Shown here: one piece after another, positions 8,801-19,399 of the stretch
Numbering within the stretch: position 1 is the stretch's first letter
Layout: the number at the start of each line of letters is the position of its first letter
Assembly: GCA_035561835.1 (NCBI GenBank)
Contig: DATMXF010000229.1
Coordinates: forward strand, 1-24,161
Direction of reading: 5' to 3'
From: Patescibacteria group bacterium
Lineage (GTDB): Bacteria; Methylomirabilota; Methylomirabilia; Methylomirabilales; Methylomirabilaceae
Length of the DNA: 24,161 bases
Notes under the pieces: generated by a model
What the model was told of the DNA's origin: nothing
The model's input: only the letters and a program-made list of their open reading frames with translations
The model's database searches: none
Made by a program: the position numbers and the translations under genes

Positions 8801-9328
8801 CTACTTAAAAGCATAGTTTATGTAGACGTGGTACGCCATGAGCAGCAACAACGCCATAGATAATCCGACATGGGCGCTGATCCACACCGGTCTGTACCAG
8901 GGCTTGTGGATTTTCACGATTTGAAAATTGAACAAGCCGGTGAGGAAGGCCAGCAACAACGTCAGGCTGAGGATTTCGAGATAGCCGTATCCCAAGGTTT
9001 GGGAATGGCCAAAGAAAAATAACAGAAGCAGAGCGCCGAAAAGTTTGTGGCGACCCATCATGGTTGCGGTATTGCGCTGCTCCCCCTGAGCGCGCTTCAC
9101 GGAAAAACGCCATTGATAAAGAACAAACGCAAACAATCCGAAGCCTGTGGCGAGTTTATACGTGCTGTCGCCTTGCAGTCCGGTCAATAAGGTCCACTGC
9201 CACCCAATCGATTGCTGGACAATCAAAGCCACCAGCAGGAACAGACCCAGCCAAAAATACCCTTTGGCGGGTACACCGGACTTCAGGCCGTCCGGAAGCA
9301 ACGATTTAAGTCGGTTGAAGCCTTGCAT
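8801..9328 (-). CDS. Integral membrane protein, candidate di-heme b-type cytochrome (two H-x13-H helices)
   Basis: I trimmed the track ORF (8801-9571) to the ATG at 9328 because the 5' extension overlaps the upstream gene. About 5 hydrophobic helices. HKLFGALLLLFFFGH and HVGLSMALLLLMAYH each place two His residues 14 positions apart. Confidence 0.55.
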   Translation of the reverse strand: MQGFNRLKSLLPDGLKSGVPAKGYFWLGLFLLVALIVQQSIGWQWTLLTGLQGDSTYKLATGFGLFAFVLYQWRFSVKRAQGEQRNTATMMGRHKLFGALLLLFFFGHSQTLGYGYLEILSLTLLLAFLTGLFNFQIVKIHKPWYRPVWISAHVGLSMALLLLMAYHVYINYAFK

Positions 9329-9341
9329 AAAGACCAAGCTT

Positions 9342-10211
9342 TTAACGGGCAATGACAAGGGCACCTCCTTCTTTGTTCGCTGCTGATCCAGGTCTTGGCT
9401 TGCTCGCCAGTGAGCTGAGCACCGCCAAGGTGTGCGGGGCTGTGCGCTTGGCGATTTCCCCCATGAACACCTCGGAGCTCGGTAAGAAATACCCCTCAGC
9501 CGGCCAGTGTTCGCCAATGGCGGGGGGATTGGCAAATTTCTGCGCCTTTTCAAGATAAGACTCGTAGGCATCCTTGAAGCCTTGGCGTAAGGCGGCGAGC
9601 GTGCGGAGTAACTCGTCCATGGACACGCTGCCGCTTGGATACATCCACGTGGTCGCGCCCATCACATCATTGAGCTTCCAGTCGTGCTTGGGTGATTGTT
9701 CGTGCTTGTTATGGCATTGGATGCAGCCCTCGACGACCGCCACATCGCTGAACATGGCGACCTGCATTTGAATGTCGGGCATGAAGAAGAATTGCGGCTT
9801 GAGGGTTTGCTTGACTACCTGGAATTTTTCCAATTGCAACCCCTCGAAGCGGTTCGCCGAGTTGACGGGATAGTCAGAACCCAGGAACAGACTGAGCGGC
9901 GTCGGATTCTTTTCCAGACTTTTCGCCGTCTCGCGCAGGAACAACGCCGGCAATGGGCCGGCCTCCACGTCCGCCTCGCGCCAACGCTCGTCGAACTTCA
10001 AACCGGTCTGCTTGCCCGCACCGACCACTTCCTTGGTCCACATCGCTCGAACTACGTCGTTTTCCGCCTTGAGAATCTCAAACATCCGCTCCACCGGGAT
10101 AGCCGCATCGGCAGCCTTCTTCTCTTCCAATGGCGGCGGGGCACTGACAAGCAGGTAGATGCTTAAGGCGCCCAGCGCCAGGCCGGCGATCCAGAAGTTT
10201 TGCTTAGCCAT
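9342..10211 (-). CDS. Membrane-anchored monoheme c protein, DUF3365 (Tll0287-like) domain plus C-terminal extension
   Basis: Start taken at MAKQNFWIAGLALGAL (ATG 10211; ATG 10220 is also possible), overlapping the upstream stop. There is a single CIQCH. The pattern GPLPALFLRE...VNSANRFEGLQLEKF...CIQCH...WKLNDVMGATTWMYP resembles DUF3365 heme-c sensor-like domains. Confidence 0.6.
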   Translation of the reverse strand: MAKQNFWIAGLALGALSIYLLVSAPPPLEEKKAADAAIPVERMFEILKAENDVVRAMWTKEVVGAGKQTGLKFDERWREADVEAGPLPALFLRETAKSLEKNPTPLSLFLGSDYPVNSANRFEGLQLEKFQVVKQTLKPQFFFMPDIQMQVAMFSDVAVVEGCIQCHNKHEQSPKHDWKLNDVMGATTWMYPSGSVSMDELLRTLAALRQGFKDAYESYLEKAQKFANPPAIGEHWPAEGYFLPSSEVFMGEIAKRTAPHTLAVLSSLASKPRPGSAANKEGGALVIAR

Positions 10212-10899
10212 CTTGACCATCCTGTTTTGCTTTGTAGTGGAGAGTTGTGCCGTAAGGAGAGGGCCCGCCATCAAAATAGGCGCGGATTTTCTCTGTCGGC
10301 GTTCGCTTGCCGACCGATTTCTCGGTCTGCATAATGTGGTTGCCGTGGAAGTCGTGGCAGCCCAGGCAGGAGTCCCATTGCTTGTGGGCTATCAAGTCCG
10401 CATGGGGCACATCGATGGGATCGTTCTTTAACCGGGTGTCCTTGTGGCAGTTCACGCAATAGTCTGTCTTCGCCAACGTGACACGCCTCCCCCGGTGTTC
10501 GGCGTGGCAGGAGACGCACTGATGGGGGCCCAACGTTTCCCGAACCTGGCTGAAACGGGGTTCGAGGAAGCGGTAGACCGGGTGGCGGTCGTTGGGCCGC
10601 TCGTGACAGGCCATGCAGTCCGTATTACCCACAGGGAGCCGTCCGAAGGCGGCGGGCGCTTCGCGCCACCCAAAGGCATAGCGCAGGTTGGCCTGAATCT
10701 GCTGGCGGAAGCTGCCCGGTGCGTTTTTGTGGCAAGCCACGCAGGCAAGCTTGCCGTGGCCTGTATTCATAGGTCCTTTAGCATGAAACCATTCCCCGAC
10801 TGGAAGCACGGTAAACACCAGGATCGCAAGTCCCAAACAGAAGCCGATCGCATAGGCGCGGTTTTGCCATTTCCTTGACCCTTCAGCTTTCGCTCTCAT
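10204..10899 (-). CDS. Membrane-anchored pentaheme c-type cytochrome (NapC/NirT/NrfH-like topology)
   Basis: It has five CxxCH motifs (CVACH, CMACH, CVSCH, CVNCH, CLGCH) and an N-terminal TM helix (AYAIGFCLGLAILVFTVLPV). The first ATG is at 10899; the track start at 10908 is a TTG. Confidence 0.75.
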   Translation of the reverse strand: MRAKAEGSRKWQNRAYAIGFCLGLAILVFTVLPVGEWFHAKGPMNTGHGKLACVACHKNAPGSFRQQIQANLRYAFGWREAPAAFGRLPVGNTDCMACHERPNDRHPVYRFLEPRFSQVRETLGPHQCVSCHAEHRGRRVTLAKTDYCVNCHKDTRLKNDPIDVPHADLIAHKQWDSCLGCHDFHGNHIMQTEKSVGKRTPTEKIRAYFDGGPSPYGTTLHYKAKQDGQDG

Positions 10900-11018
10900 A
10901 GCCACCAACTCAAGCTACGTGCCAAAAACTCACGCTGATGCATTAGGCCTTATTGTGTCTGCTGTGTAGCTTACCGGTGGCGAAAATGAAGCGTCTGCTT
11001 ATCCTCTGAATGGAGAGA

Positions 11019-11064
11019 GGGTGGGGGTGTGATCTGAAGACAACCACTTGGTTCACCCCCACCC
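11019..11064. repeat. G/C-run inverted repeat in the intergenic region
   Basis: GGGTGGGGGTG (11019-11029) pairs with CACCCCCACCC (11054-11064), 11 bp perfect, with a 24-nt loop holding a nested AACCA..TGGTT. No T-tract on either strand. Confidence 0.3.
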
Positions 11065-11201
11065 CATCCTTCCCCCCTCAAGAGGGAAAGGGGCTCATCG
11101 TCACCTCGCCACATATCGCTGATCCATGCGTCGCCTGAAGGCGGGTGACCACGCCCACGATCTCCCCTCTCTGGGGGCCGCTATTCTGTGGCTTCTGAGA
11201 G

Positions 11202-11489
11202 CTACTCGATGACCTCCATAATCCGACTCTGCACATTTGAGGCTAACATCATCAGCTCGCTGCGAAGCGCCTTACGCTCATCGAGGGCTAAAATTTTATC
11301 GAAGTTGCTGAAATCGCCCACCTCAATCGTAATGACTCGCTCCAACTTATTCGCCAAATGGTCGCCAAAGACGTGAAACCTCGAGACCCCTTGGTTGGCG
11401 AGCCAAAAAGTTTTCATTTTGCCGATTAAGAAGGCATCCAATGCCTGCTCTTGCCCTGGCTGAACTTCACACATGATGTGATAGATCAT
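11202..11489 (-). CDS. Small (95 aa) hypothetical protein with a beta-alpha-beta-beta-alpha-beta (ferredoxin-like / ABM-like) sequence pattern
   Basis: Strong SD (AGGAGGAG) before the ATG. The alternating hydrophobic pattern IYHIMCEV / helix / SRFHVFGD / RVITIEVGD / helix / SRIMEVIE suggests this fold. I am not confident of a family. Confidence 0.5.
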   Translation of the reverse strand: MIYHIMCEVQPGQEQALDAFLIGKMKTFWLANQGVSRFHVFGDHLANKLERVITIEVGDFSNFDKILALDERKALRSELMMLASNVQSRIMEVIE

Positions 11490-11725: not shown

Positions 11726-12106
11726 TTATGGGGTCTTGGTAAAGCTTCTGATGTAGACCACCAGCTCCTTGATCTCGGAATCGGTCAGTTTTAGCCCAAA
11801 CGAAGGCATCGATGCTTTACCTTGCTTAATAGTTCGAAAGAGAACGTCATCAGACCGTGTTTGCATATAGGCCGGATCGGCCATGTTGGGCACCTTAAAC
11901 ATAAAAAACAACGCCATCGCCTGCGGTCCATTGCCTTTGCCGCTTGCGCCATGGCATCGAGCACACCCAGTGTCATCGTACCTCGACTGCCCGCTTACTG
12001 CGCTTTTCGTCTCCGCGCCGAACGCGGAAGAGGTCCACACAACGACCAATATCACCATCACGTATAACCACCGGTAACGGAGTCGAGGCAAGAAACAACT
12101 GCGCAT
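11726..12106 (-). CDS. Periplasmic monoheme class-I cytochrome c
   Basis: The ATG at 12106 lies 8 nt after GAGGAGGA, which I prefer over the GTG at 12163. The signal peptide is WLYVMVILVVVWTSSAFGA. There is a single CARCH and a distal Met context (GKASMPSFG). Confidence 0.75.
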   Translation of the reverse strand: MRSCFLPRLRYRWLYVMVILVVVWTSSAFGAETKSAVSGQSRYDDTGCARCHGASGKGNGPQAMALFFMFKVPNMADPAYMQTRSDDVLFRTIKQGKASMPSFGLKLTDSEIKELVVYIRSFTKTP

Positions 12107-12192
12107 CGTAATCGTCCTCCTCTTGTCCACGGGGTAACCTGTGTCTGTAATGTTCGAGATCACGTCTTATGTTGAAGGGCCGTCCGCGCTTA

Positions 12193-12238
12193 CAAAACGA
12201 TACCTCCCAGCCAGCGCTACCACTGACTGGGAGGTATC
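12193..12238 (-). terminator. Rho-independent-type terminator after qNOR-like paralog 1
   Basis: On the minus strand, GATACCTCCCAG (12238-12227) pairs with CTGGGAGGTATC (12210-12199), 12 bp perfect with a 16-nt loop. GTTTTGT follows. Confidence 0.6.
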
Positions 12239-12274
12239 AGAACGAAGTGTGATGTGCCTACCTAGATCCTCAGA

Positions 12275-14701
12275 TTAGAAGGCCTCGTCGCCGGCAGCCC
12301 AAGTCTCCCGCTCCTTCGCCTTCTCCTTGTCGTAGATGGTCCATTCACCTTCCTCGACAACAGAGGCTTCGCGGACCATCCGCCCTGCTCTTGACAGAAT
12401 GAAATAGGCGAGAGGCAACACGCCGCCAAAGAGGAAGATCGCGCCGCCGATCGTGCGCATCCACGTCAAGGTGATCCACACGCTATCCGTGACGTGCGCC
12501 TGTGCTCGGGCAGCCCAAAGTCCTTGCTTGAAGACGGTCGAAACCTGGTACAGACCGACAGGGAACAGGTCCAACATCATCATCAGCACCAGGCCGACCT
12601 GCAACGACCAGAAGATCCCCTTGATCAGCTTCTCATTCCAGGCAGAGCGCTGGAACAGGTGCTGGCAGGCAAACAGCATACCGGCGATGGCGATGTTACC
12701 CTTGACGCCGAACATGGCGGCATGGGCATGGTTGCCGGTAAGATAGGTGCCGTGCTCATAGTAGTTGACGATGGGCAGGTTGATCAACGAGCCGAAGACG
12801 CCCGCGCCAAAGATGTTCCAGAAGTTGACGGCGAGGATGAACGTCCAGACGCCGTCCATCACGAAGCGCTGCTTGCCCTCGGCAATGTTTTCATGGGCCT
12901 TCGACCGCTCCGTCCGCATCTTCCAGGCGTCCAGGGTGATCAACAGCAGCGGCAGCACCTGCATGGTGGAGAAGACGCTACCCAGTGCGATGATTCCTGT
13001 CGGCTTGGCGATCCAGTAGAAGTTGTGGGAGATGCCGATCAGGGCGGTCACCAGGAACATCATGACGGCCAGGAAGATAACCCGCTCGGCCATCGCCCGG
13101 TTGACCAGACCCATCTGCACCAGCATGTACCCAACGATACAGGTGGTGAAGACCTCGAAGGTCACCTCAACCCACATATGAATGTTCATCCACCGCCAGT
13201 AGTCCGCGATGGCGAAGTTCTGCGACGGGGTCATGAACATCCCGAAGAACAGGAACAGCACCATGATCCCGCTGCCGTAGAACAGCCAAGCCGGCACCGA
13301 CCAGAGGTTCTGGCTGGTGATCCAGGGCTTTACGGCGCGGAAGATGATGTAGACCCACAGACAGAACGATGCCAGCATCAGGATGTGCCAGAAGCGGCCG
13401 AGCTCCAGGAACTCCCACCCTTGGCTGCCGAACCAGTAGGCCATGTCGTCGCTAAAGAACCCTGTGTGGCCGAGGTAAATGCCAAACAGCGCGCCGGCGC
13501 CTACGATAAGACACAGCGTAAAGAGCAGGTTGATCAGGAACCGCTGCCCGTTGGGCACCTTCGAAATGCGGGGCAGGAAGAAGAGGGTGTAGCCGACCCA
13601 CGCCATAAAGAACCAGTAAATCTGGACGATGGTATGCCAGCCCCGGGTGACGGTAAAGGGGATAGTAAACCCTAACACTGTTGTAGCGAGGGCGCTACCC
13701 GGTCCACCACCGACGAAATCTTCGGCGCTCAGGATACCTGCCAGGACCTGGACCAGGAACAGGATGACAGCGAAGGCAAAGAACTTATAGGTGGCACGCT
13801 GTGTCGGTCGCACGTAAGCGTCGCCCTTGTTTTCCAGGTCGACCGTGGTGAGCGACCAATCCCGCCCATTGAACGGCTCGCCGGGCAGGGCCTTCATTTC
13901 GCCGTACACGTACAGGACCAGCATGGTACCGCAGAACAGCACAAAGATCGAGATAAAGCTCCAGAGATAGGTCTCAAACGTCGGGGTATTCCCGACTATC
14001 GGGTCGGGCGGCCAGTTGTGAGTGTAGGTATAGTCGAAACCCGGCCGATTCGCCCCGGACACCCAGCCTCCCCAGAAGAAATAGCCTGCTAGGGCCTTGA
14101 GATCTGCTGTGTTGCTGATATGATTTTCGATCCTCCCTTTCATGAAGGCTTCTTCATAGGTGGCATCCGTAAACATCCGGGTGTAGTGCGTGATCAACTC
14201 CTGATACGCAAAGACCTGAGCCGGATTGATACGGATGATGTTGGCAGCCGCATCATACCCGTTCTCATGGATTTCGCGCCTGACCCTGACCGAGATCATA
14301 TCACGGTCGGCTTGAGTGACAGGACGCTCCTTCGCGATCTCATTTTCGTAGAACTTGCTCATCGATACATAGGTATGGTGTAGCGCTTCAGCGGTGAAAT
14401 CCGGTCCGCGCTCACCACCGTCGCCCCAGAAAGAGCCATACGTCATCAGGCCCTTCAAGTGAAAGATCTGTTTTCCACGCTGGATCTCCCATTCGGGGAT
14501 GACGGTTTCTCCAGTGGTTGACAACACATAATTGGTCAATGGCGGAGCTGAGGTATAAGTCCAGACGCCCAAGGCAACCAAACCAATAACGCTGATAACG
14601 GTAACGATCAGGGCATGAAGCCACCAATACTTCTTGATCAGCAATGCTTGCCCGAATGTCCTATTAGTTTTCCCCATACCGCCGCTTGCAGTAGATTTCA
14701 T
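12275..14701 (-). CDS. nod: qNOR-family heme-copper oxidase, paralog 1 (808 aa), with putative nitric oxide dismutase (Nod)-type substitutions
   Basis: GGAGGTAACAATG is the start context. The architecture is qNOR-like: one N-terminal TM helix, a heme-free periplasmic domain, then a NorB-like core. Retained motifs: RGWH, NIHMWVEV, NHAHAAMFG. Altered motifs: SHNFYW instead of an HH pair (AAC at 13022-13024), SVFSTMQVLPL with Q instead of E (CAG at 12959-12961), and AEDFVGGGPG where qNORs have AHYxxE. Confidence 0.9.
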   Translation of the reverse strand: MKSTASGGMGKTNRTFGQALLIKKYWWLHALIVTVISVIGLVALGVWTYTSAPPLTNYVLSTTGETVIPEWEIQRGKQIFHLKGLMTYGSFWGDGGERGPDFTAEALHHTYVSMSKFYENEIAKERPVTQADRDMISVRVRREIHENGYDAAANIIRINPAQVFAYQELITHYTRMFTDATYEEAFMKGRIENHISNTADLKALAGYFFWGGWVSGANRPGFDYTYTHNWPPDPIVGNTPTFETYLWSFISIFVLFCGTMLVLYVYGEMKALPGEPFNGRDWSLTTVDLENKGDAYVRPTQRATYKFFAFAVILFLVQVLAGILSAEDFVGGGPGSALATTVLGFTIPFTVTRGWHTIVQIYWFFMAWVGYTLFFLPRISKVPNGQRFLINLLFTLCLIVGAGALFGIYLGHTGFFSDDMAYWFGSQGWEFLELGRFWHILMLASFCLWVYIIFRAVKPWITSQNLWSVPAWLFYGSGIMVLFLFFGMFMTPSQNFAIADYWRWMNIHMWVEVTFEVFTTCIVGYMLVQMGLVNRAMAERVIFLAVMMFLVTALIGISHNFYWIAKPTGIIALGSVFSTMQVLPLLLITLDAWKMRTERSKAHENIAEGKQRFVMDGVWTFILAVNFWNIFGAGVFGSLINLPIVNYYEHGTYLTGNHAHAAMFGVKGNIAIAGMLFACQHLFQRSAWNEKLIKGIFWSLQVGLVLMMMLDLFPVGLYQVSTVFKQGLWAARAQAHVTDSVWITLTWMRTIGGAIFLFGGVLPLAYFILSRAGRMVREASVVEEGEWTIYDKEKAKERETWAAGDEAF

Positions 14702-14760
14702 TGTTACCTCCTATGGCCACACCCATGACTTGGGTCGCCACATGTTCCTTTCACTACTTA

Positions 14761-14925
14761 CTACTCCTTACAATCTTGCCATCTTGGTACCGTTATCGCC
14801 CAAGGCCTCGGGGGCGCACGCACTTCCTGGTCAGCAAAAGGCAGACCGCCGCTTTGCCACCGGAAGCCTGGCCGACCACACGGTAACCCTTTGCTCAGCT
14901 TATCGACCCACGTCATAAGTTTCAT
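14761..14925 (-). CDS. Candidate 54-codon upstream ORF / leader peptide of paralog 1 (low confidence)
   Basis: GGAGGA lies 9 nt upstream of the ATG at 14925, and the stop is TAG at 14761-14763. The peptide is MKLMTWVDKLSKGLPCGRPGFRWQSGGLPFADQEVRAPPRPWAITVPRWQDCKE. It is partly conserved, in frame, with a counterpart upstream of paralog 2. Confidence 0.25.
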   Translation of the reverse strand: MKLMTWVDKLSKGLPCGRPGFRWQSGGLPFADQEVRAPPRPWAITVPRWQDCKE

Positions 14926-14993
14926 GAGGCACGTTCCTCCTTGCTTTCAAGGTCATCAGCTTACAGTCAAAGCGTAGGCTCTCCAGCAGGGCC

Positions 14994-15036
14994 TGTAAAT
15001 CAGATGATCAACTTAATTTTCAATGCAAATGCATTA
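14994..15036 (-). promoter_or_regulatory. Conserved upstream element of paralog 1 (TTTACA -35-like hexamer plus ATGCA-AA-TGCAT dyad)
   Basis: The plus-strand sequence GTAAATCAGATGATCAACTTAATTTTCAATGCAAATGCATTAG is related to the two repeats upstream of paralog 2. It contains a 14-bp perfect palindrome, AATGCAAATGCATT (15022-15035). Confidence 0.35.
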
Positions 15037-15207
15037 GTCGTCCAGGAGGATTACCCGGCCGGTGAACATTTTTCACGCTTGCCGGCCTTAGAGACGGCTA
15101 CTCACTGCCAGAGACAGAACGCCCCGGGCGTCTGCCCGCGGGGCCGAAGTTCTTCTTCATCTTTTTGAGTAACCGATAAACTGCGCCAGAGCACCATCGT
15201 TCGTTAT

Positions 15208-15234
15208 TATTAGTAGAACCCTGTTCTACTAATA
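15208..15234. promoter_or_regulatory. Perfect 12-3-12 AT-rich palindrome (candidate operator or hairpin)
   Basis: TATTAGTAGAAC (15208-15219), CCT, GTTCTACTAATA (15223-15234). Confidence 0.4.
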
Positions 15235-15237
15235 TAC

Positions 15238-15266
15238 AATATAGCGCAAAGCTCCCCCTGAGGCAA
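15238..15266 (-). promoter_or_regulatory. Sigma70-like promoter candidate (TTGCCT-N17-TATATT, minus strand)
   Basis: The -35 is the complement of 15261-15266 and the -10 is the complement of 15238-15243. The predicted start falls at the edge of the 15208-15234 palindrome. Confidence 0.3.
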
Positions 15267-15408
15267 GCATGAATATGGAAGGACCTAGAAATGGGGTCGA
15301 TGGGGGGGACGCGTACACGTCAGAGATAGCAAAAGCAGTCGCGCTGATCGCGTCAGTCAGGTGGTTTGCGTGGGGGACGGCCAGCCTCAGAGGAACGGCT
15401 GGCCGCAC

Positions 15409-15458
15409 AAAAAACGACACCCCGCAGCATAACATCTCTGTTATGTCGCGGGGTGTCG
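15409..15458 (-). terminator. Strong Rho-independent terminator after qNOR-like paralog 2
   Basis: A 20-bp stem (15415-15434 pairs with 15439-15458; one mismatch, one G-U) with a 4-nt loop. Six T residues follow on the minus strand (A-run at 15409-15414). Confidence 0.85.
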
Positions 15459-15496
15459 AAGTGCGTGTTACTTAGGTACTGACCTAGATCGTTAGA

Positions 15497-17932
15497 CTAG
15501 AAGGCCTCATCAGAAGCGGCCCAAGCCTCTCGCTCCTTCGCCTTCTCTCTGTCGTAGATCGTCCACTCGCCCTCTTCAACAACGGCAGCTTCGCGGACCA
15601 TCCGTCCAGCCCTCGACAGAATGAACCAACACAGAGGCACAACACCACCGAAGAGGAAGATCGCGCCGCCGATTGACCGAAGCCAAGTCAGCGTGTGCCA
15701 TACCTCGTTGGTGACGAACGACTGCTGGCGGCCATACCAGAACCCATACTGGAAGATGTGGGCGAGCTGATACAGACCAACCGGGAACATATCCATGAGC
15801 ATCATCATCACGATGCCGGCCTGCAGGGACCAGAAGACAGTCTTGATCAGCTTCTCATTCCAGGCAGAGCGCTGGAACAGGTGCTGGCAGGCAAACAGCA
15901 TACCGGCGATGGCGATGTTACCCTTGACGCCGAACATGGCGCCATGGGCATGGTTGTTGGTGAGATAGGTGCCGTGCTCATAGTAGTTGACGATGGGCAG
16001 GTTGATCAACGAGCCCATGACGCCGGCACCGAAGATGTTCCAGAAGTTGACGGCGAGGATGAACGTCCAGACGCCGTCCATCACGAAGCGCTGCTTGCCC
16101 TCAGAAAGGTGCTCATGGGCCTTGGTCCGCTCCGTCCGCATCTTCCAGGCATCCAGGGTGATCAACAGCAGCGGCAGCACCTGCATGGTGGAGAAGACGC
16201 TACCCAGTGCGATGATTCCTGTCGGCTTGGCGATCCAGTAGAAGTTGTGGGAGATCCCGATCAGGGCGGTCACCAGGAACATCATGACGGCCAGGAAGAT
16301 AACCCGCTCGGCCATGGCCCGGTTGACCAGACCCATCTGCACCAGCATGTACCCAACGATACAGGTAGTGAAGACCTCGAAGGTGACCTCAACCCACATA
16401 TGGATGTTCATCCACCGCCAGTAGTCGGAGATGGCGAAGTTCTGTGACGGGGTCATGAACATCCCAAAGAACAGGAACAGCACCATGATCCCGCTGCCGT
16501 AGAACAGCCAAGCCGGTACCGACCAGAGGTTCTGGCTGGTGATCCAGGGCTTGACGGCGCGGAAGATGATGTAGACCCACAGACAGAACGAGGACAGCAT
16601 CAGGATGTGCCAGAAGCGGCCCAGCTCCAGGAACTCCCAGCCCTGGCTGCCGAACCAGTAGGCCATGTCGTCGGTCAGCATACCGGTGTGGCCGGCATAA
16701 ATCCCAAACAGCGCACCGGCGCCGACGAGCACGCACAGCGCAAAGAGCAGGTTGATCAGGAACCGCTGCCCGCTTGGTACCTTCGAAATTCGGGGCAGGA
16801 AGAAGAGGGTGTAGCCGACCCAGGCCATGAAGAACCAGTAGATCTGGACGATAGCATGATAGCTTCGGACGACGCTGAAGGGGATGACGAGTCCGAACGC
16901 GCCCAAGATCGTTTCACCAGGTCCACCGCCGACGAAATCCTCGGCGCCCAGGATACCGGCCAGTACCTGCACCAGGAACAGGATGACAGCGAAGGCAAAG
17001 AACTTATAGGTGGCGCGCTGGGTCGGTCGAACGTAGGCATCGCCCTTGTTTTCAAGGTCGACCGTGGTGAGCGACCAATCGCGCCCGTTGAACGGCTCGC
17101 CGGGCAGGGACTTCATTTCGCCGTAGACGTACAGGACCAGCATGGTGCCAGCGAACAGCACGAGGATCGAGAGGAAGCTCCAGATGTACGTCGCGTACGT
17201 CGGGAGGTTGCCGGCGTCAGGATCATACGGCCAGTTATGGGTATAGCTGTAGATCTCGCCCGGTCGATTCGCGCCGGCTACCCAGCCGCCCCAGAAGAAG
17301 TAACCCGCCAATCCCTTGATGTCCTCCGGGTTGCTGATGTAGCTCTTGATCCGACCCTTCTGGAATGCCTCTTCATAGGTGGGATCGGTGAACATCTTAG
17401 TGTAATGATCGACCAATTCATTATATGCAAAGATCTGGGCGTCGTTCAGGCGGATGACGCCTGCGGCTGCGTCATAACCGTTCTGATGAATCTCTCGCTT
17501 GACCTTTCCCGCGATCCCGTCCTTCTCGTCCTGGGTTGCGGGGCGGCCCTGCTCTTTCTCGATCTGCATCTCATAGTGCTTGCCCATGGAGACGAAGGTT
17601 CGATGCAGAGCTTCTGCGGTGAAATCCGGTCCGCGCTCTGCGCCGTCACCCCAGAAGGATCCGTAGAGCATCAGACCCTTCAGATGAAACACCTGCTTTC
17701 CACGATTCATGGAATACTCAGGAATAACGACTTCCCCGCTCTTCGCCGATACGAAATTAACCAGAGGGGGAGCGCCGGCGTAGGTCCAGACGCCAAGCGC
17801 AATCAATCCGATAACGCTGATTGCAGTGACGATCAAAGCATGAAGCCACCAATACTTCTTGATGAGTAGTACTTGTGCAAATGTCCTCTCGTTCTTGCCC
17901 TTTGCCGCAGTTCCGCTGGGATTCGGACTCAT
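15497..17932 (-). CDS. nod: qNOR-family heme-copper oxidase, paralog 2 (811 aa from ATG 17932), with putative nitric oxide dismutase (Nod)-type substitutions
   Basis: I moved the start from the track's 17971 to the ATG at 17932, which has the same GGAGGTAACAATG context as paralog 1. It has the same motif set: RSYH, NIHMWVEV, NHAHGAMFG, SHNFYW (AAC at 16244-16246), SVFSTMQVLPL (CAG at 16181-16183) and AEDFVGGGPG (16916-16948). Confidence 0.9.
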   Translation of the reverse strand: MSPNPSGTAAKGKNERTFAQVLLIKKYWWLHALIVTAISVIGLIALGVWTYAGAPPLVNFVSAKSGEVVIPEYSMNRGKQVFHLKGLMLYGSFWGDGAERGPDFTAEALHRTFVSMGKHYEMQIEKEQGRPATQDEKDGIAGKVKREIHQNGYDAAAGVIRLNDAQIFAYNELVDHYTKMFTDPTYEEAFQKGRIKSYISNPEDIKGLAGYFFWGGWVAGANRPGEIYSYTHNWPYDPDAGNLPTYATYIWSFLSILVLFAGTMLVLYVYGEMKSLPGEPFNGRDWSLTTVDLENKGDAYVRPTQRATYKFFAFAVILFLVQVLAGILGAEDFVGGGPGETILGAFGLVIPFSVVRSYHAIVQIYWFFMAWVGYTLFFLPRISKVPSGQRFLINLLFALCVLVGAGALFGIYAGHTGMLTDDMAYWFGSQGWEFLELGRFWHILMLSSFCLWVYIIFRAVKPWITSQNLWSVPAWLFYGSGIMVLFLFFGMFMTPSQNFAISDYWRWMNIHMWVEVTFEVFTTCIVGYMLVQMGLVNRAMAERVIFLAVMMFLVTALIGISHNFYWIAKPTGIIALGSVFSTMQVLPLLLITLDAWKMRTERTKAHEHLSEGKQRFVMDGVWTFILAVNFWNIFGAGVMGSLINLPIVNYYEHGTYLTNNHAHGAMFGVKGNIAIAGMLFACQHLFQRSAWNEKLIKTVFWSLQAGIVMMMLMDMFPVGLYQLAHIFQYGFWYGRQQSFVTNEVWHTLTWLRSIGGAIFLFGGVVPLCWFILSRAGRMVREAAVVEEGEWTIYDREKAKEREAWAASDEAF

Positions 17933-17954
17933 TGTTACCTCCCGTGGCTCGACC

Positions 17955-18134
17955 TCATTTGAGGTGACCACCTTGCATTGTTATTACCGTGCCGTCTTGA
18001 GTTGGGATGATCCCATCCACCGGGGGCGCACGCGCTTCGCGAACAGTCCGCAGAGCGCGGGTGAGACGGCAACCGCCTGTTCGAACAGGCGGTGCCCCGC
18101 TACACTGCTTATCGATTCTCATCATACGGTCCAT
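17955..18134 (-). CDS. Candidate 59-codon upstream ORF / leader peptide of paralog 2 (low confidence)
   Basis: GAGGAGG lies 8 nt upstream of the ATG at 18134, and the stop is TGA at 17955-17957. The peptide is MDRMMRIDKQCSGAPPVRTGGCRLTRALRTVREARAPPVDGIIPTQDGTVITMQGGHLK. It shares M1, M4, I/V7-D8-K9, G13, P15, R18, G20 and E-x-RAPP with the paralog 1 uORF. Confidence 0.25.
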   Translation of the reverse strand: MDRMMRIDKQCSGAPPVRTGGCRLTRALRTVREARAPPVDGIIPTQDGTVITMQGGHLK

Positions 18135-18180
18135 GGGGAACGCCTCCTCTGCGCCAATCTTGCGATCCCCTGTAGGCTTT

Positions 18181-18290
18181 GTAAATCCTGCGAATGAATC
18201 AATCCGCGATGCATATGTACTATACTATTTACTATGCTCTGTGAGACTCGTAAATCCTGCGATTGACTCAATATGGTGATGCATATGCAC
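18181..18290. promoter_or_regulatory. Two ~40-nt direct repeats (69-nt period) upstream of paralog 2, carrying short dyads
   Basis: Repeat 1 is 18181-18220, GTAAATCCTGCGAATGAATCAATCCGCGATGCATATGTAC. Repeat 2 is 18250-18290, GTAAATCCTGCGATTGACTCAATATGGTGATGCATATGCAC. Dyads: ATTGACTCAAT (18262-18272) and TGCATATGCA (18280-18289). Confidence 0.45.
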
Positions 18291-18502: not shown

Positions 18503-19399
18503 TCACGCTGCCTTGTGGGGCTCCTTCGTAGCCCCTGGCGCCTGTCCTGCCTCCGCGTGAGCCGCAGGCTCACGCCGCGCAATCTCGTTCACGTAGGCGA
18601 CAGCCTCCAGTCGTGTGTGGACCTTGAGCTTACTGAAGATGTTCTGGATGTGGTTTCTCACTGTAGTTTTACTGATGAAAAGCTGCTCCGCGATAGCCGC
18701 CGTCGTTGCGCCGGTCCGCATCAGGGTAACAACCTGCAACTCCCGCCGAGTTAAGTCACCGACAGGAGATACGGTCTTCTCACTCGCCGTAAGCTGAGTC
18801 TGAGCCAGTTGTTGGCGAACGAGCACCTCAAGCTGGTGCGCCGAGGTGACATCACGGAAGAGATGAACAACTGTCGGGGGCTGGTTATCCTCACAGGGAA
18901 GAGCAACACAGCTCACGTCGATCCACAGCGGTTTACCCGTCCTCGTCCGAGTAGCCATCTCGAAATGCTGGATCAGATCGCCGCGGCTCAACGTCATTTT
19001 CAGTGGGCAAGGCCACTGGCAAAGCTGATTGCCATTACTATCACGGCCGTTGAAGAACTCACGGCATTGCTGTCCGACCACTTGTTGCGCAGAAGCTTCC
19101 AGGATAGTTTCAGCGGCCCGGTTGCAGAACAGAATCTCTCCAGTCGGCGCACTGACAAACACACCGTCGGCCGTCTCCGCGAAAAGCTTGAAGGCAGCTT
19201 CGCGTGGTTCCGTAGGCTGTACGCTTTCCGGCTCGCTTCGCGAATCCTTTTCCTCAACTGCAGGTGTAAGCCGATGCTCGTTTTCCTCGTCGTCTATAAG
19301 GTAGTCCACTGCCTCGCCTGTCCGGACACCGCCATCACGCCGCAGGCCTGCCCCTGGGATTCGCACCGAACGTTTCGGCCCGTTGCCTGAATGCGCCAT
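18503..19399 (-). CDS. PAS-domain / LuxR-type HTH transcriptional regulator
   Basis: The C-terminal LuxR/GerE HTH is LTRRELQVVTLMRTGATTAAIAEQLFISKTTVRNHIQNIFSKLKV. The central PAS-like segment is FKLFAETADGVFVSAPTGEILFCNRAAETIL...VVHLFRDVT. There is no receiver or kinase domain. Confidence 0.8.
   Translation of the reverse strand: MAHSGNGPKRSVRIPGAGLRRDGGVRTGEAVDYLIDDEENEHRLTPAVEEKDSRSEPESVQPTEPREAAFKLFAETADGVFVSAPTGEILFCNRAAETILEASAQQVVGQQCREFFNGRDSNGNQLCQWPCPLKMTLSRGDLIQHFEMATRTRTGKPLWIDVSCVALPCEDNQPPTVVHLFRDVTSAHQLEVLVRQQLAQTQLTASEKTVSPVGDLTRRELQVVTLMRTGATTAAIAEQLFISKTTVRNHIQNIFSKLKVHTRLEAVAYVNEIARREPAAHAEAGQAPGATKEPHKAA

Follow-up and report, generated by a model that had tools for sequence, protein, structure and literature searches.

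A conserved three-gene haem cassette beside nod in Methylomirabilis, a probable transmembrane electron-transfer module

Here we present an analysis of three tightly packed minus-strand genes in a 24,161-nucleotide stretch of contig DATMXF010000229.1 (assembly GCA_035561835.1, family Methylomirabilaceae), called the window throughout. They encode a signal-anchored pentahaem cytochrome c of 231 amino acids (aa) (gene A, 10204..10899), a signal-anchored single-haem c protein of the Tll0287/DUF3365 (sCache_heme) family (gene B, 9342..10211, 289 aa) and a five-transmembrane (five-TM) protein, a putative dihaem b transmembrane electron carrier (gene C, 8801..9358, 185 aa). The three genes constitute one unit, probably a haem-based membrane electron-transfer module, and on balance we favour the view that A, B and C form a membrane complex moving electrons from the cytoplasmic face to c-type haems in the periplasm. 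The evidence comes from the conservation of the cassette, from relatives in which C is fused to a cytoplasmic reductase, and from invariant histidines in C.

The module is widespread and uncharacterised, and it points to NOX/MsrQ-like transmembrane electron transfer coupled to multihaem c. In the literature we found no paper that describes the module, DUF3365 in Methylomirabilis, or the locus tags DAMO_2429-2433 or MELA_02430; a comparative genomic study discusses the nod genes but not their triad neighbours (PMC6094997). Public annotations of the triad proteins read only 'cytochrome c3 family protein', 'c-type heme family protein' or 'hypothetical'. An earlier reading of this DNA, made from the sequence only, had been unable to assign the module to a named complex, and neither the literature nor our hidden Markov model (HMM) scans gave a named complex that matches it.

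Results

The cassette and its conservation

The sequence-only reading had placed three open reading frames (ORFs) here with an 8-nt overlap between A and B, and this is correct (10204-10211, ATGGCTAA). It had also placed a 13-nt gap between B and C, which probably does not exist. Gene C is 185 aa long if it starts at TTG 9358, or 175 aa if it starts at ATG 9328; since 185 aa is the length in 20 of the 29 close homologue clusters, and the 10 residues before ATG 9328 are conserved in C's frame among homologues, TTG 9358, with AGGAGG 5 nt upstream, is the likely start. From this start C and B overlap by 17 nt, and the overlaps at both junctions indicate that the three genes are translationally coupled. 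The earlier picture of C as a polytopic protein of about 175 aa thus stands as to its polytopic nature, with five TM helices, but not as to its likely length.

Loci were gathered in three ways: through C, through fusions of C, and through B in metagenomes. The last was a single metagenome scan, which returned 359 relatives, of which 80 were kept, and the total came to 105 loci in 77 dereplicated groups. The search through C reached 12 species-representative genomes, one of Methylomirabilota and 11 metagenome-assembled genomes (MAGs) of Methylococcales or other Gammaproteobacteria, and the order A-B-C was identical in all 20 loci found by this route. Wherever there was room on the contig, A lay directly upstream of B (67/67 locus groups). 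A C domain was likewise present in every group with room for it: downstream as a stand-alone gene in 52 (A-B-C), upstream as part of a fusion in 12 (C-A-B), and upstream but cut by the contig in two. Cassettes occur in Methylomirabilota, Methylococcales, Gemmatimonadota and Myxococcota, and across the 105 loci no neighbour beyond A, B and C is conserved between lineages.

A methanotroph-specific function was considered, since 11 of the 12 species-representative matches were MAGs of Methylococcales or other Gammaproteobacteria; it is ruled out by the fusions in Gemmatimonadota and Myxococcales.

Relatives in which C is fused to a reductase

Long members of the C family, of 410-930 aa, carry the C domain at their extreme C-terminus, as delimited by Pfam. 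The fused N-terminal module consists of a BFD-like [2Fe-2S] domain, FAD_binding_6 and NAD_binding_1, often with two cyclic-nucleotide-binding domains ahead of them. Among 10 such long members, the BFD-like domain was found in seven, FAD_binding_6 and NAD_binding_1 in nine each and cyclic-nucleotide-binding domains in five, while one had no Pfam match. Fusions account for 12 of the 66 locus groups in which C could be scored, and the named members of the fusion clusters belong to Gemmatimonadota, Myxococcales/Deltaproteobacteria and Methyloprofundus. An A-like gene (224-230 aa) directly follows the fusion gene in all three fusion loci that were looked up; a B-like gene (275-280 aa) comes next in loci L021 and L022, and in L023 a cut ORF overlaps the end of A.

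Because C is fused behind a cytoplasmic reductase in these 12 groups, with A and B next to it, C is most likely a transmembrane carrier loaded from the cytoplasmic face. Indeed, the fusion architecture makes sense only if the C domain moves electrons outward across the membrane.

The same relatives bear on the opposite direction of flow, in which a periplasmic donor would be oxidised at B or A and electrons would pass inward to the quinone pool. Modules of multihaem c and membrane b proteins can work either way, and the sequence of the stand-alone form leaves the direction unfixed. In the fused relatives, however, reduction of NAD(P)+ from c-type haems would, on thermodynamic grounds, be strongly uphill, and no periplasmic oxidase-type catalytic subunit is conserved nearby. 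We give reverse flow only a very slim chance.

Gene C: a putative dihaem b protein

Both an AlphaFold2 model (predicted local distance difference test, pLDDT, 80) and hydropathy give gene C five long TM helices, with pairs of histidines on the third and the fifth: H104 and H118 on helix 94-118 (TM3), H163 and H177 on helix 155-183 (TM5). These are the two His-x13-His helices, HKLFGALLLLFFFGH and HVGLSMALLLLMAYH, that the sequence-only reading had pointed out. Over the loops, as placed by the sequence and the AlphaFold2 helices, 14 lysines and arginines fall on the predicted cytoplasmic side and one on the periplasmic side. This bias predicts an N-terminus inside and a C-terminus outside, so that H104 and H163 would bind the inner haem and H118 and H177 the outer one, and it agrees with the cytoplasmic FNR-type module fused N-terminally in relatives.

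The family is large. A word-index search found 29 clusters and an exhaustive profile search found 381 clusters at 50% identity, of which 268 reach an E value of 1e-10 or better. In 105 stand-alone representatives, 24-45% identical to the window's C, the only invariant residues are G72, H104, H118, G123, H163 and H177. The four histidines are also conserved in 54/54 to 58/59 of the dereplicated orthologues taken from the loci.

Weak Pfam matches recur over the same 105 members, with DUF4405 in 38 (best E 4.3e-7), Ferric_reduct in 21 (best E 1e-5) and Ni_hydr_CYTB in 16 (best E 2e-6), as well as PepSY_TM and Sdh_cyt. Each is a family of transmembrane proteins with b-haems. C thus behaves as a bis-haem b subunit, and haem b binding is predicted. 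The invariant histidines and the weak matches to DUF4405, Ferric_reduct and Ni_hydr_CYTB agree with the earlier description of C as a putative di-heme b subunit, and they speak against a family that has no haem or in which the histidines are not conserved.

To which of these families C is related is less certain. DUF4405 would be no closer than a divergent sister. Ferric_reduct (PF01794) is not matched by the window's C, none of the 11 relatives whose bit scores were inspected reaches the Ferric_reduct cut-off, and a search of PDB sequences with the C profile returned nothing useful; direct placement of C within the ferric-reductase or b561 families is not established. C does have the histidine pattern of the ferric reductase domain (FRD), with pairs on TM3 and TM5 spaced 12-14 residues apart and, judging from the AlphaFold2 helices and the lysine and arginine counts, a cytoplasmic N-terminus.

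The sequence-only reading had likened C to the cytochrome b of the bc1 complex. Like bc1/b6f cytochrome b, C has two His pairs 13 residues apart on two TM helices, suited to two stacked b-haems. However, neither Cytochrome_B nor Cytochrom_B_N was matched in 105 members, and Cytochrome_B is missing both from the window's C and from the 25 most frequent families among those members. Also, C has five helices with its ligands on TM3 and TM5, the FRD pattern, whereas in bc1/b6f cytochrome b the ligands sit on helices B and D of a four-helix bundle. Finally, the triad lacks a Rieske or cytochrome c1 partner as well as Qo/Qi signatures. The likeness to bc1 is therefore not upheld.

Gene B: a single-haem Cache protein lacking the axial cysteine

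Gene B begins with one N-terminal TM helix, followed by a conserved SAPPPL, and contains a single CIQCH. The residue at +1 of its sole plausible signal-peptidase site is proline, which argues for an uncleaved anchor. The protein matches the Tll0287-like family PF11845 over residues 87-189 (35.3 bits against a cut-off of 24.1, E 1.8e-8), and after this domain come about 90 further C-terminal aa, which are conserved and contain two helices. The protein is thus TM-anchored with one CIQCH, a DUF3365/Tll0287-like domain and an extension, as the sequence-only reading had described it.

This family was recently redefined as sCache_heme, characterised by a strictly conserved CXXCH on a short helix inserted between β3 and β4 of the Cache fold (bioRxiv 10.64898/2026.02.01.703092). 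B agrees with this definition: in its AlphaFold2 model (pLDDT 84) the CxxCH helix (161-169) lies between strands 149-157 and 183-191, and the motif is conserved in 100% of about 60 dereplicated orthologues (66/66 aligned sequences). Against the PDB, Foldseek with this model gave weak, insignificant Cache and GAF matches (E >= 0.03), and sequence searches with B alone and with a B profile gave no detectable match to any chain.

The only two cysteines of B are both within CIQCH, and no third cysteine is conserved among orthologues; the axial cysteine of Tll0287, N-terminal to CXXCH, is therefore absent. This sets B apart from the subgroup of His/Cys-ligated stand-alone redox proteins to which Tll0287 belongs. 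M184 (66/66 aligned sequences), H170 (65/66) and M153 (64/66) are possible distal haem ligands. Being Cys-less, B may be ligand-reactive, and the want of a Cys axial ligand makes it the best candidate for a terminal or ligand-reactive site. Its haem could also be an element of the wire.

These features raise the possibility that the triad is a periplasmic redox or NO sensor, in which B signals through A and C and there is no sustained electron flux. The sCache_heme family includes bona fide NO-binding sensor domains, and its Cys-less, signalling-linked member from P. azotoformans binds NO tightly (bioRxiv 10.64898/2026.02.01.703092); B likewise has no axial cysteine, and fused relatives of C carry cyclic-nucleotide-binding domains. 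Yet no HAMP, kinase, GGDEF or MCP output domain occurs in A, B, C or a conserved neighbour, and the architecture is enzyme-like, since the obligatory partners of B are a wire of five haems and a dihaem membrane protein, joined in relatives by an NAD(P)H-flavin-FeS reductase. In addition, stand-alone Cys/His-ligated members behaved as redox proteins, and the stand-alone sCache_heme class was assigned redox roles (bioRxiv 10.64898/2026.02.01.703092). We therefore rate a sensor as highly improbable.

In L064 (7944-9845) and L065 the B frame runs more than 300 residues longer, the extra part having no Pfam match, and C lies more than 1 kb further downstream, past an additional small ORF.

Gene A: a pentahaem cytochrome

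The N-terminus of gene A is a basic stretch followed by a single hydrophobic helix, and the protein has five CxxCH motifs (CVACH, CMACH, CVSCH, CVNCH and CLGCH), as expected from the earlier account of a TM-anchored pentahaem cytochrome. Cytochrome_C7, Cytochrom_c3_2 and Paired_CXXCH_1 exceed their cut-offs, by which Pfam places A among the small multihaem cytochromes. The two equivalog models for NrfB score far below their cut-offs (TIGR03146, 27.1 bits against 166.6; NF008659, 22.8 against 184), and the HMM scans gave no NapC/NirT-type match.

All five CxxCH are conserved in 100% of about 60 dereplicated orthologues, and together with H48, H106, H135, H166, H185 and H188 they are kept in every orthologue that can be aligned there (56-59 sequences of 58 plus the window's). 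The five motifs and the six invariant histidines would suffice for five bis-His haems.

Relation of the cassette to the nod genes

The window also contains two qNOR-like genes, nod1 (12275-14701) and its second paralogue nod2 (15497-17971). NO dismutase (NOD) is recognised by a qNOR fold in which one FeB ligand is changed from His to Asn and a residue near the active site from Glu to Gln (PMC3413370). Both genes have these hallmarks: aligned to 3AYF, nod1 reads GISHNFYW in place of GIGHHYYY and TMQVLPL in place of ALEVIPL, and both changed motifs are also found in nod2.

Several features separate the cassette from these genes. A terminator-like hairpin on the minus strand (12198..12239; 19 bp, then TTTTG) stands between the nod1 stop and the gene for a monohaem cytochrome c, and nod2 is followed by a minus-strand inverted repeat (15415-15458) with 20-nt arms of 90% complementarity; that each paralogue has an inverted repeat of its own suggests separate transcription units. 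Directly 5' of gene A, a 302-nt non-coding spacer (10900..11201, minus strand) is the likely 5' boundary and promoter region of the triad. It holds no ORF, and 10990-11200 within it folds as a G+C-rich structured RNA (z = -2.84); no sigma-70-like site was found there on the minus strand, and the promoter is a candidate region. A search for an FNR/Dnr box common to the regions upstream of nod and of the triad gave eight matches against 7.6 expected, none of them upstream of A. The nod1 hairpin, the nod2 repeat, the spacer and the lack of an enriched FNR box together argue that the triad is a unit of its own, and the cassette appears autonomous, lying outside the predicted nod transcripts.

Comparison between loci points the same way. 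Only three of the 29 groups with at least 10 kb of sequence have nod within the locus, all three with a B at least 84% identical to that of the window, and 25 of the 29 lack nod, nir and cox alike. The flanks hold unrelated genes in Methylococcales, Gemmatimonadota, Myxococcota and other lineages. Adjacency to nod is lineage-specific synteny, confined to Methylomirabilis; the co-occurrence of triad and nod that would be expected of an accessory to NOD is absent at the locus level outside this lineage. With these results and the nod1 hairpin, a functional link between the module and nod, one of the options named in the earlier reading, is not supported.

Within the Methylomirabilis clade, by contrast with the other groups, each of the four informative groups has a haem-copper-family enzyme next to the cassette: in L009, L028 and L030 this is nod, in L027 it is COX2-COX1-COX3. 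In L027 (3531-9411) the triad, whose B is 92% identical to that of the window, is divergent from the COX genes; this locus comes from the same metagenome as L028 (Ga0080064) and represents a second Methylomirabilis-like copy or species. With four groups, a clade-level link to haem-copper enzymes is suggestive at most.

This neighbourhood is one argument for a quinol:cytochrome c oxidoreductase dedicated to nitrogen oxide metabolism, a function that the sequence-only reading had considered. Here electrons would run from quinol through C to A, B and the adjacent monohaem cytochrome c, and from there to NirS, the qNOR-like NOD or another haem-copper enzyme. Besides the four of four clade groups with a haem-copper neighbour, among which nod together with the monohaem cytochrome c recurs in L009, L028 and L030 as in the window, it can draw on the stand-alone C, with no fused reductase, in the window and 52 locus groups, and on the 16 of 105 C members that weakly match the quinone-reactive Ni_hydr_CYTB. 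Against it stand the loci outside the Methylomirabilis clade, which have no nod, nir or cox, as well as the hairpin, inverted repeat, spacer and want of a shared FNR-type box described above. Furthermore, the fused relatives draw on NAD(P)H rather than quinol, by way of their BFD-[2Fe-2S]/FAD/NAD(P)H module. Lastly, the window's nod genes carry the NOD hallmarks, and NO dismutation requires no external reductant, a premise of the earlier reading itself (PMC3413370). A quinol:cytochrome c function is thus not supported, and we regard it as unlikely.

Neighbouring features and side observations

Two further minus-strand genes are treated as neighbours of the triad and not as members of the module. 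One encodes a monohaem class-I cytochrome c of 145 aa (11726..12163; Pfam Cytochrome_CBB3, E 7e-13), which adjoins the triad only in the Methylomirabilis-type loci L009, L028, L030 and L031. The other, between this gene and the triad, is a 95-aa ORF (11202..11489) that neither Pfam nor NCBIfam matches; L028, L030 and L031 have it at 79-87% identity, and no other locus has it. An Rfam scan of the window found no RNA family, and the spacer of about 800 nt between the nod paralogues (14702-15496) has no convincing ORF and no Rfam match. Two direct repeats spaced by about 70 nt, one with a 44-nt unit (75% identity) and one with a 13-nt unit that includes a GATGCATATG palindrome, lie at 18160-18290, between nod2 and a divergent PAS-LuxR regulator gene (18503-19399), and may be regulator-binding sites.

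Recurrent neighbours exist only as synteny within Methylococcales: a HypX-like formyltransferase-enoyl-CoA hydratase-hemerythrin protein (nine groups), a DJ-1/AraC regulator (eight) and AAA_26 (seven). The first is a 755-aa protein that directly precedes the triad in L011 (6210-8477) and orthologous loci (L012, L013, L015, L017 and others); it joins the N and C domains of a formyltransferase to a HypX/HoxX-like enoyl-CoA hydratase domain and ends in a hemerythrin domain.

In L024 (2718-10307), and also in L025, the triad is surrounded by two truncated globins, a CCP_MauG dihaem cytochrome c peroxidase, an Rrf2 regulator and a Fer2-FAD-NAD reductase, a neighbourhood that resembles nitrosative or oxidative stress loci and was not seen in the other loci examined. 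CMD lies beside the triad in L001, and the stress flavour of some loci is inconsistent.

The triad of L010, a locus labelled uncultured Methylococcaceae, is 82% (B), 76% (A) and 62% (C) identical to that of the window, against about 60%, 60% and 45% in other Methylococcales. Either the cassette was transferred horizontally between NC10 and Methylococcales, as these values suggest, or the contig was mis-binned.

Discussion

A model for electron flow

We propose that two b-type haems would be stacked within C from one side of the membrane to the other, the inner one on H104 and H163 and the outer one on H118 and H177, and that C would relay electrons from the cytoplasmic to the periplasmic face. 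In the periplasm, electrons would pass to the five bis-His haems of A and then to the single c-haem of B, or in the reverse order, with B as a terminal or ligand-reactive site. In the fused relatives the donor would be the built-in NAD(P)H-FAD-[2Fe-2S] module at the N-terminus of C, often with its two cyclic-nucleotide-binding domains. In the window, C could be supplied by the quinol pool or, as MsrQ is by Fre, by a flavin reductase with a gene of its own.

Several results weigh against this model. The window's C reaches no Pfam cut-off, its DUF4405 (PF14358) match of 14.9-15.1 bits being below the 26.7 required. Alignment of the C family with hhalign gave a probability of 0.1-0.2 against E. 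coli MsrQ and no similarity to E. coli YodB, although single-sequence templates limit the power of both comparisons. Foldseek with the C model found no cytochrome b or FRD fold in the PDB, returning only insignificant helical bundles (best E 0.45). The window's C also stands alone, having no fused FAD/NAD(P)H module; stand-alone and fused forms differ in gene order and could differ in donor. Added to these are the haem-copper neighbours of all four informative Methylomirabilis-clade groups.

A bolder version of the model takes the triad and its FNR-fused relatives as a hitherto unrecognised class of NOX-like bacterial enzymes, which would use cytoplasmic NAD(P)H, or quinol, to reduce a small diffusible oxidant of the periplasm at the haem of the Cys-less B. 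NO would be the most plausible substrate, with O2-derived species as the alternative, and Methylomirabilis would have recruited the module beside nod (and beside a cox operon in L027) as a buffer that acts on NO or O2 in the periplasm near the dismutase. We offer this as a speculation of rather low probability.

Comparison with known systems

The closest parallels to the favoured model are MsrQ (YedZ)/Fre and the NOX-type FRD proteins. Like these, C is a small polytopic protein, predicted to bind b-haem, with two His each on TM3 and TM5 at a spacing of about 13 residues, and the N-terminus inside. The logic is shared as well, a cytoplasmic flavin/NAD(P)H or quinol donor serving a periplasmic or extracellular acceptor, and relatives of C have FNR-type fusions; two JGI records even label C-family members YedZ/MsrQ. 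There are also clear differences. C has five TM helices, whereas FRD proteins (PF01794; NOX, STEAP, MsrQ) have six. The reductase is N-terminal in C fusions and accompanied by an extra BFD-type [2Fe-2S] domain, but C-terminal in NOX-type systems. Finally, the acceptors in the triad would be two membrane-anchored c-type cytochromes, in place of MsrP or O2 in MsrQ and NOX.

Multihaem c proteins joined to membrane haem subunits are familiar from quinol dehydrogenases. Geobacter CbcL and CbcBA combine multihaem c with cytochrome b, NrfH/NapC/CymA use multihaem c alone, and NrfB is a pentahaem wire. The triad resembles such Cbc- and NrfH-type modules in general logic, a membrane haem subunit feeding a periplasmic multihaem wire, a comparison covered here by HMM scans. 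Gene A has weak partial matches to NrfB models, and by no above-threshold match is C of the FdnI/HydC type. Unlike these quinol dehydrogenases, the fused relatives of the triad use NAD(P)H, not quinol.

The place of B within sCache_heme is similarly mixed. Like Tll0287 (PF11845; PDB 5B82) it passes the family cut-off, has its CXXCH helix between strands and is extracytoplasmic and stand-alone, and a stand-alone extracytoplasmic class has been proposed to be redox-active (bioRxiv 10.64898/2026.02.01.703092). It differs from Tll0287 and from the stand-alone protein of P. putida in having no axial Cys, and it is further set apart by its membrane anchor and its two-helix extension of about 90 aa. 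Furthermore, the partners of B are invariably a pentahaem cytochrome and a dihaem-b-like membrane protein, a setting not described in that study.

Conclusions

If the model is right, the cassette would represent a widespread and unstudied bacterial route for carrying reducing power across the inner membrane, present in at least four phyla and ending in a new context for a haem-binding Cache domain. It would give the stand-alone half of the sCache_heme family concrete partners and a testable function, and would extend the principle of NOX and MsrQ to a permuted arrangement with c-type cytochromes as recipients. In Methylomirabilis, what lies next to nod is a mobile cassette that stands on its own and not an accessory conserved with nod, and thus an apparent argument that NOD needs an electron donor is removed.

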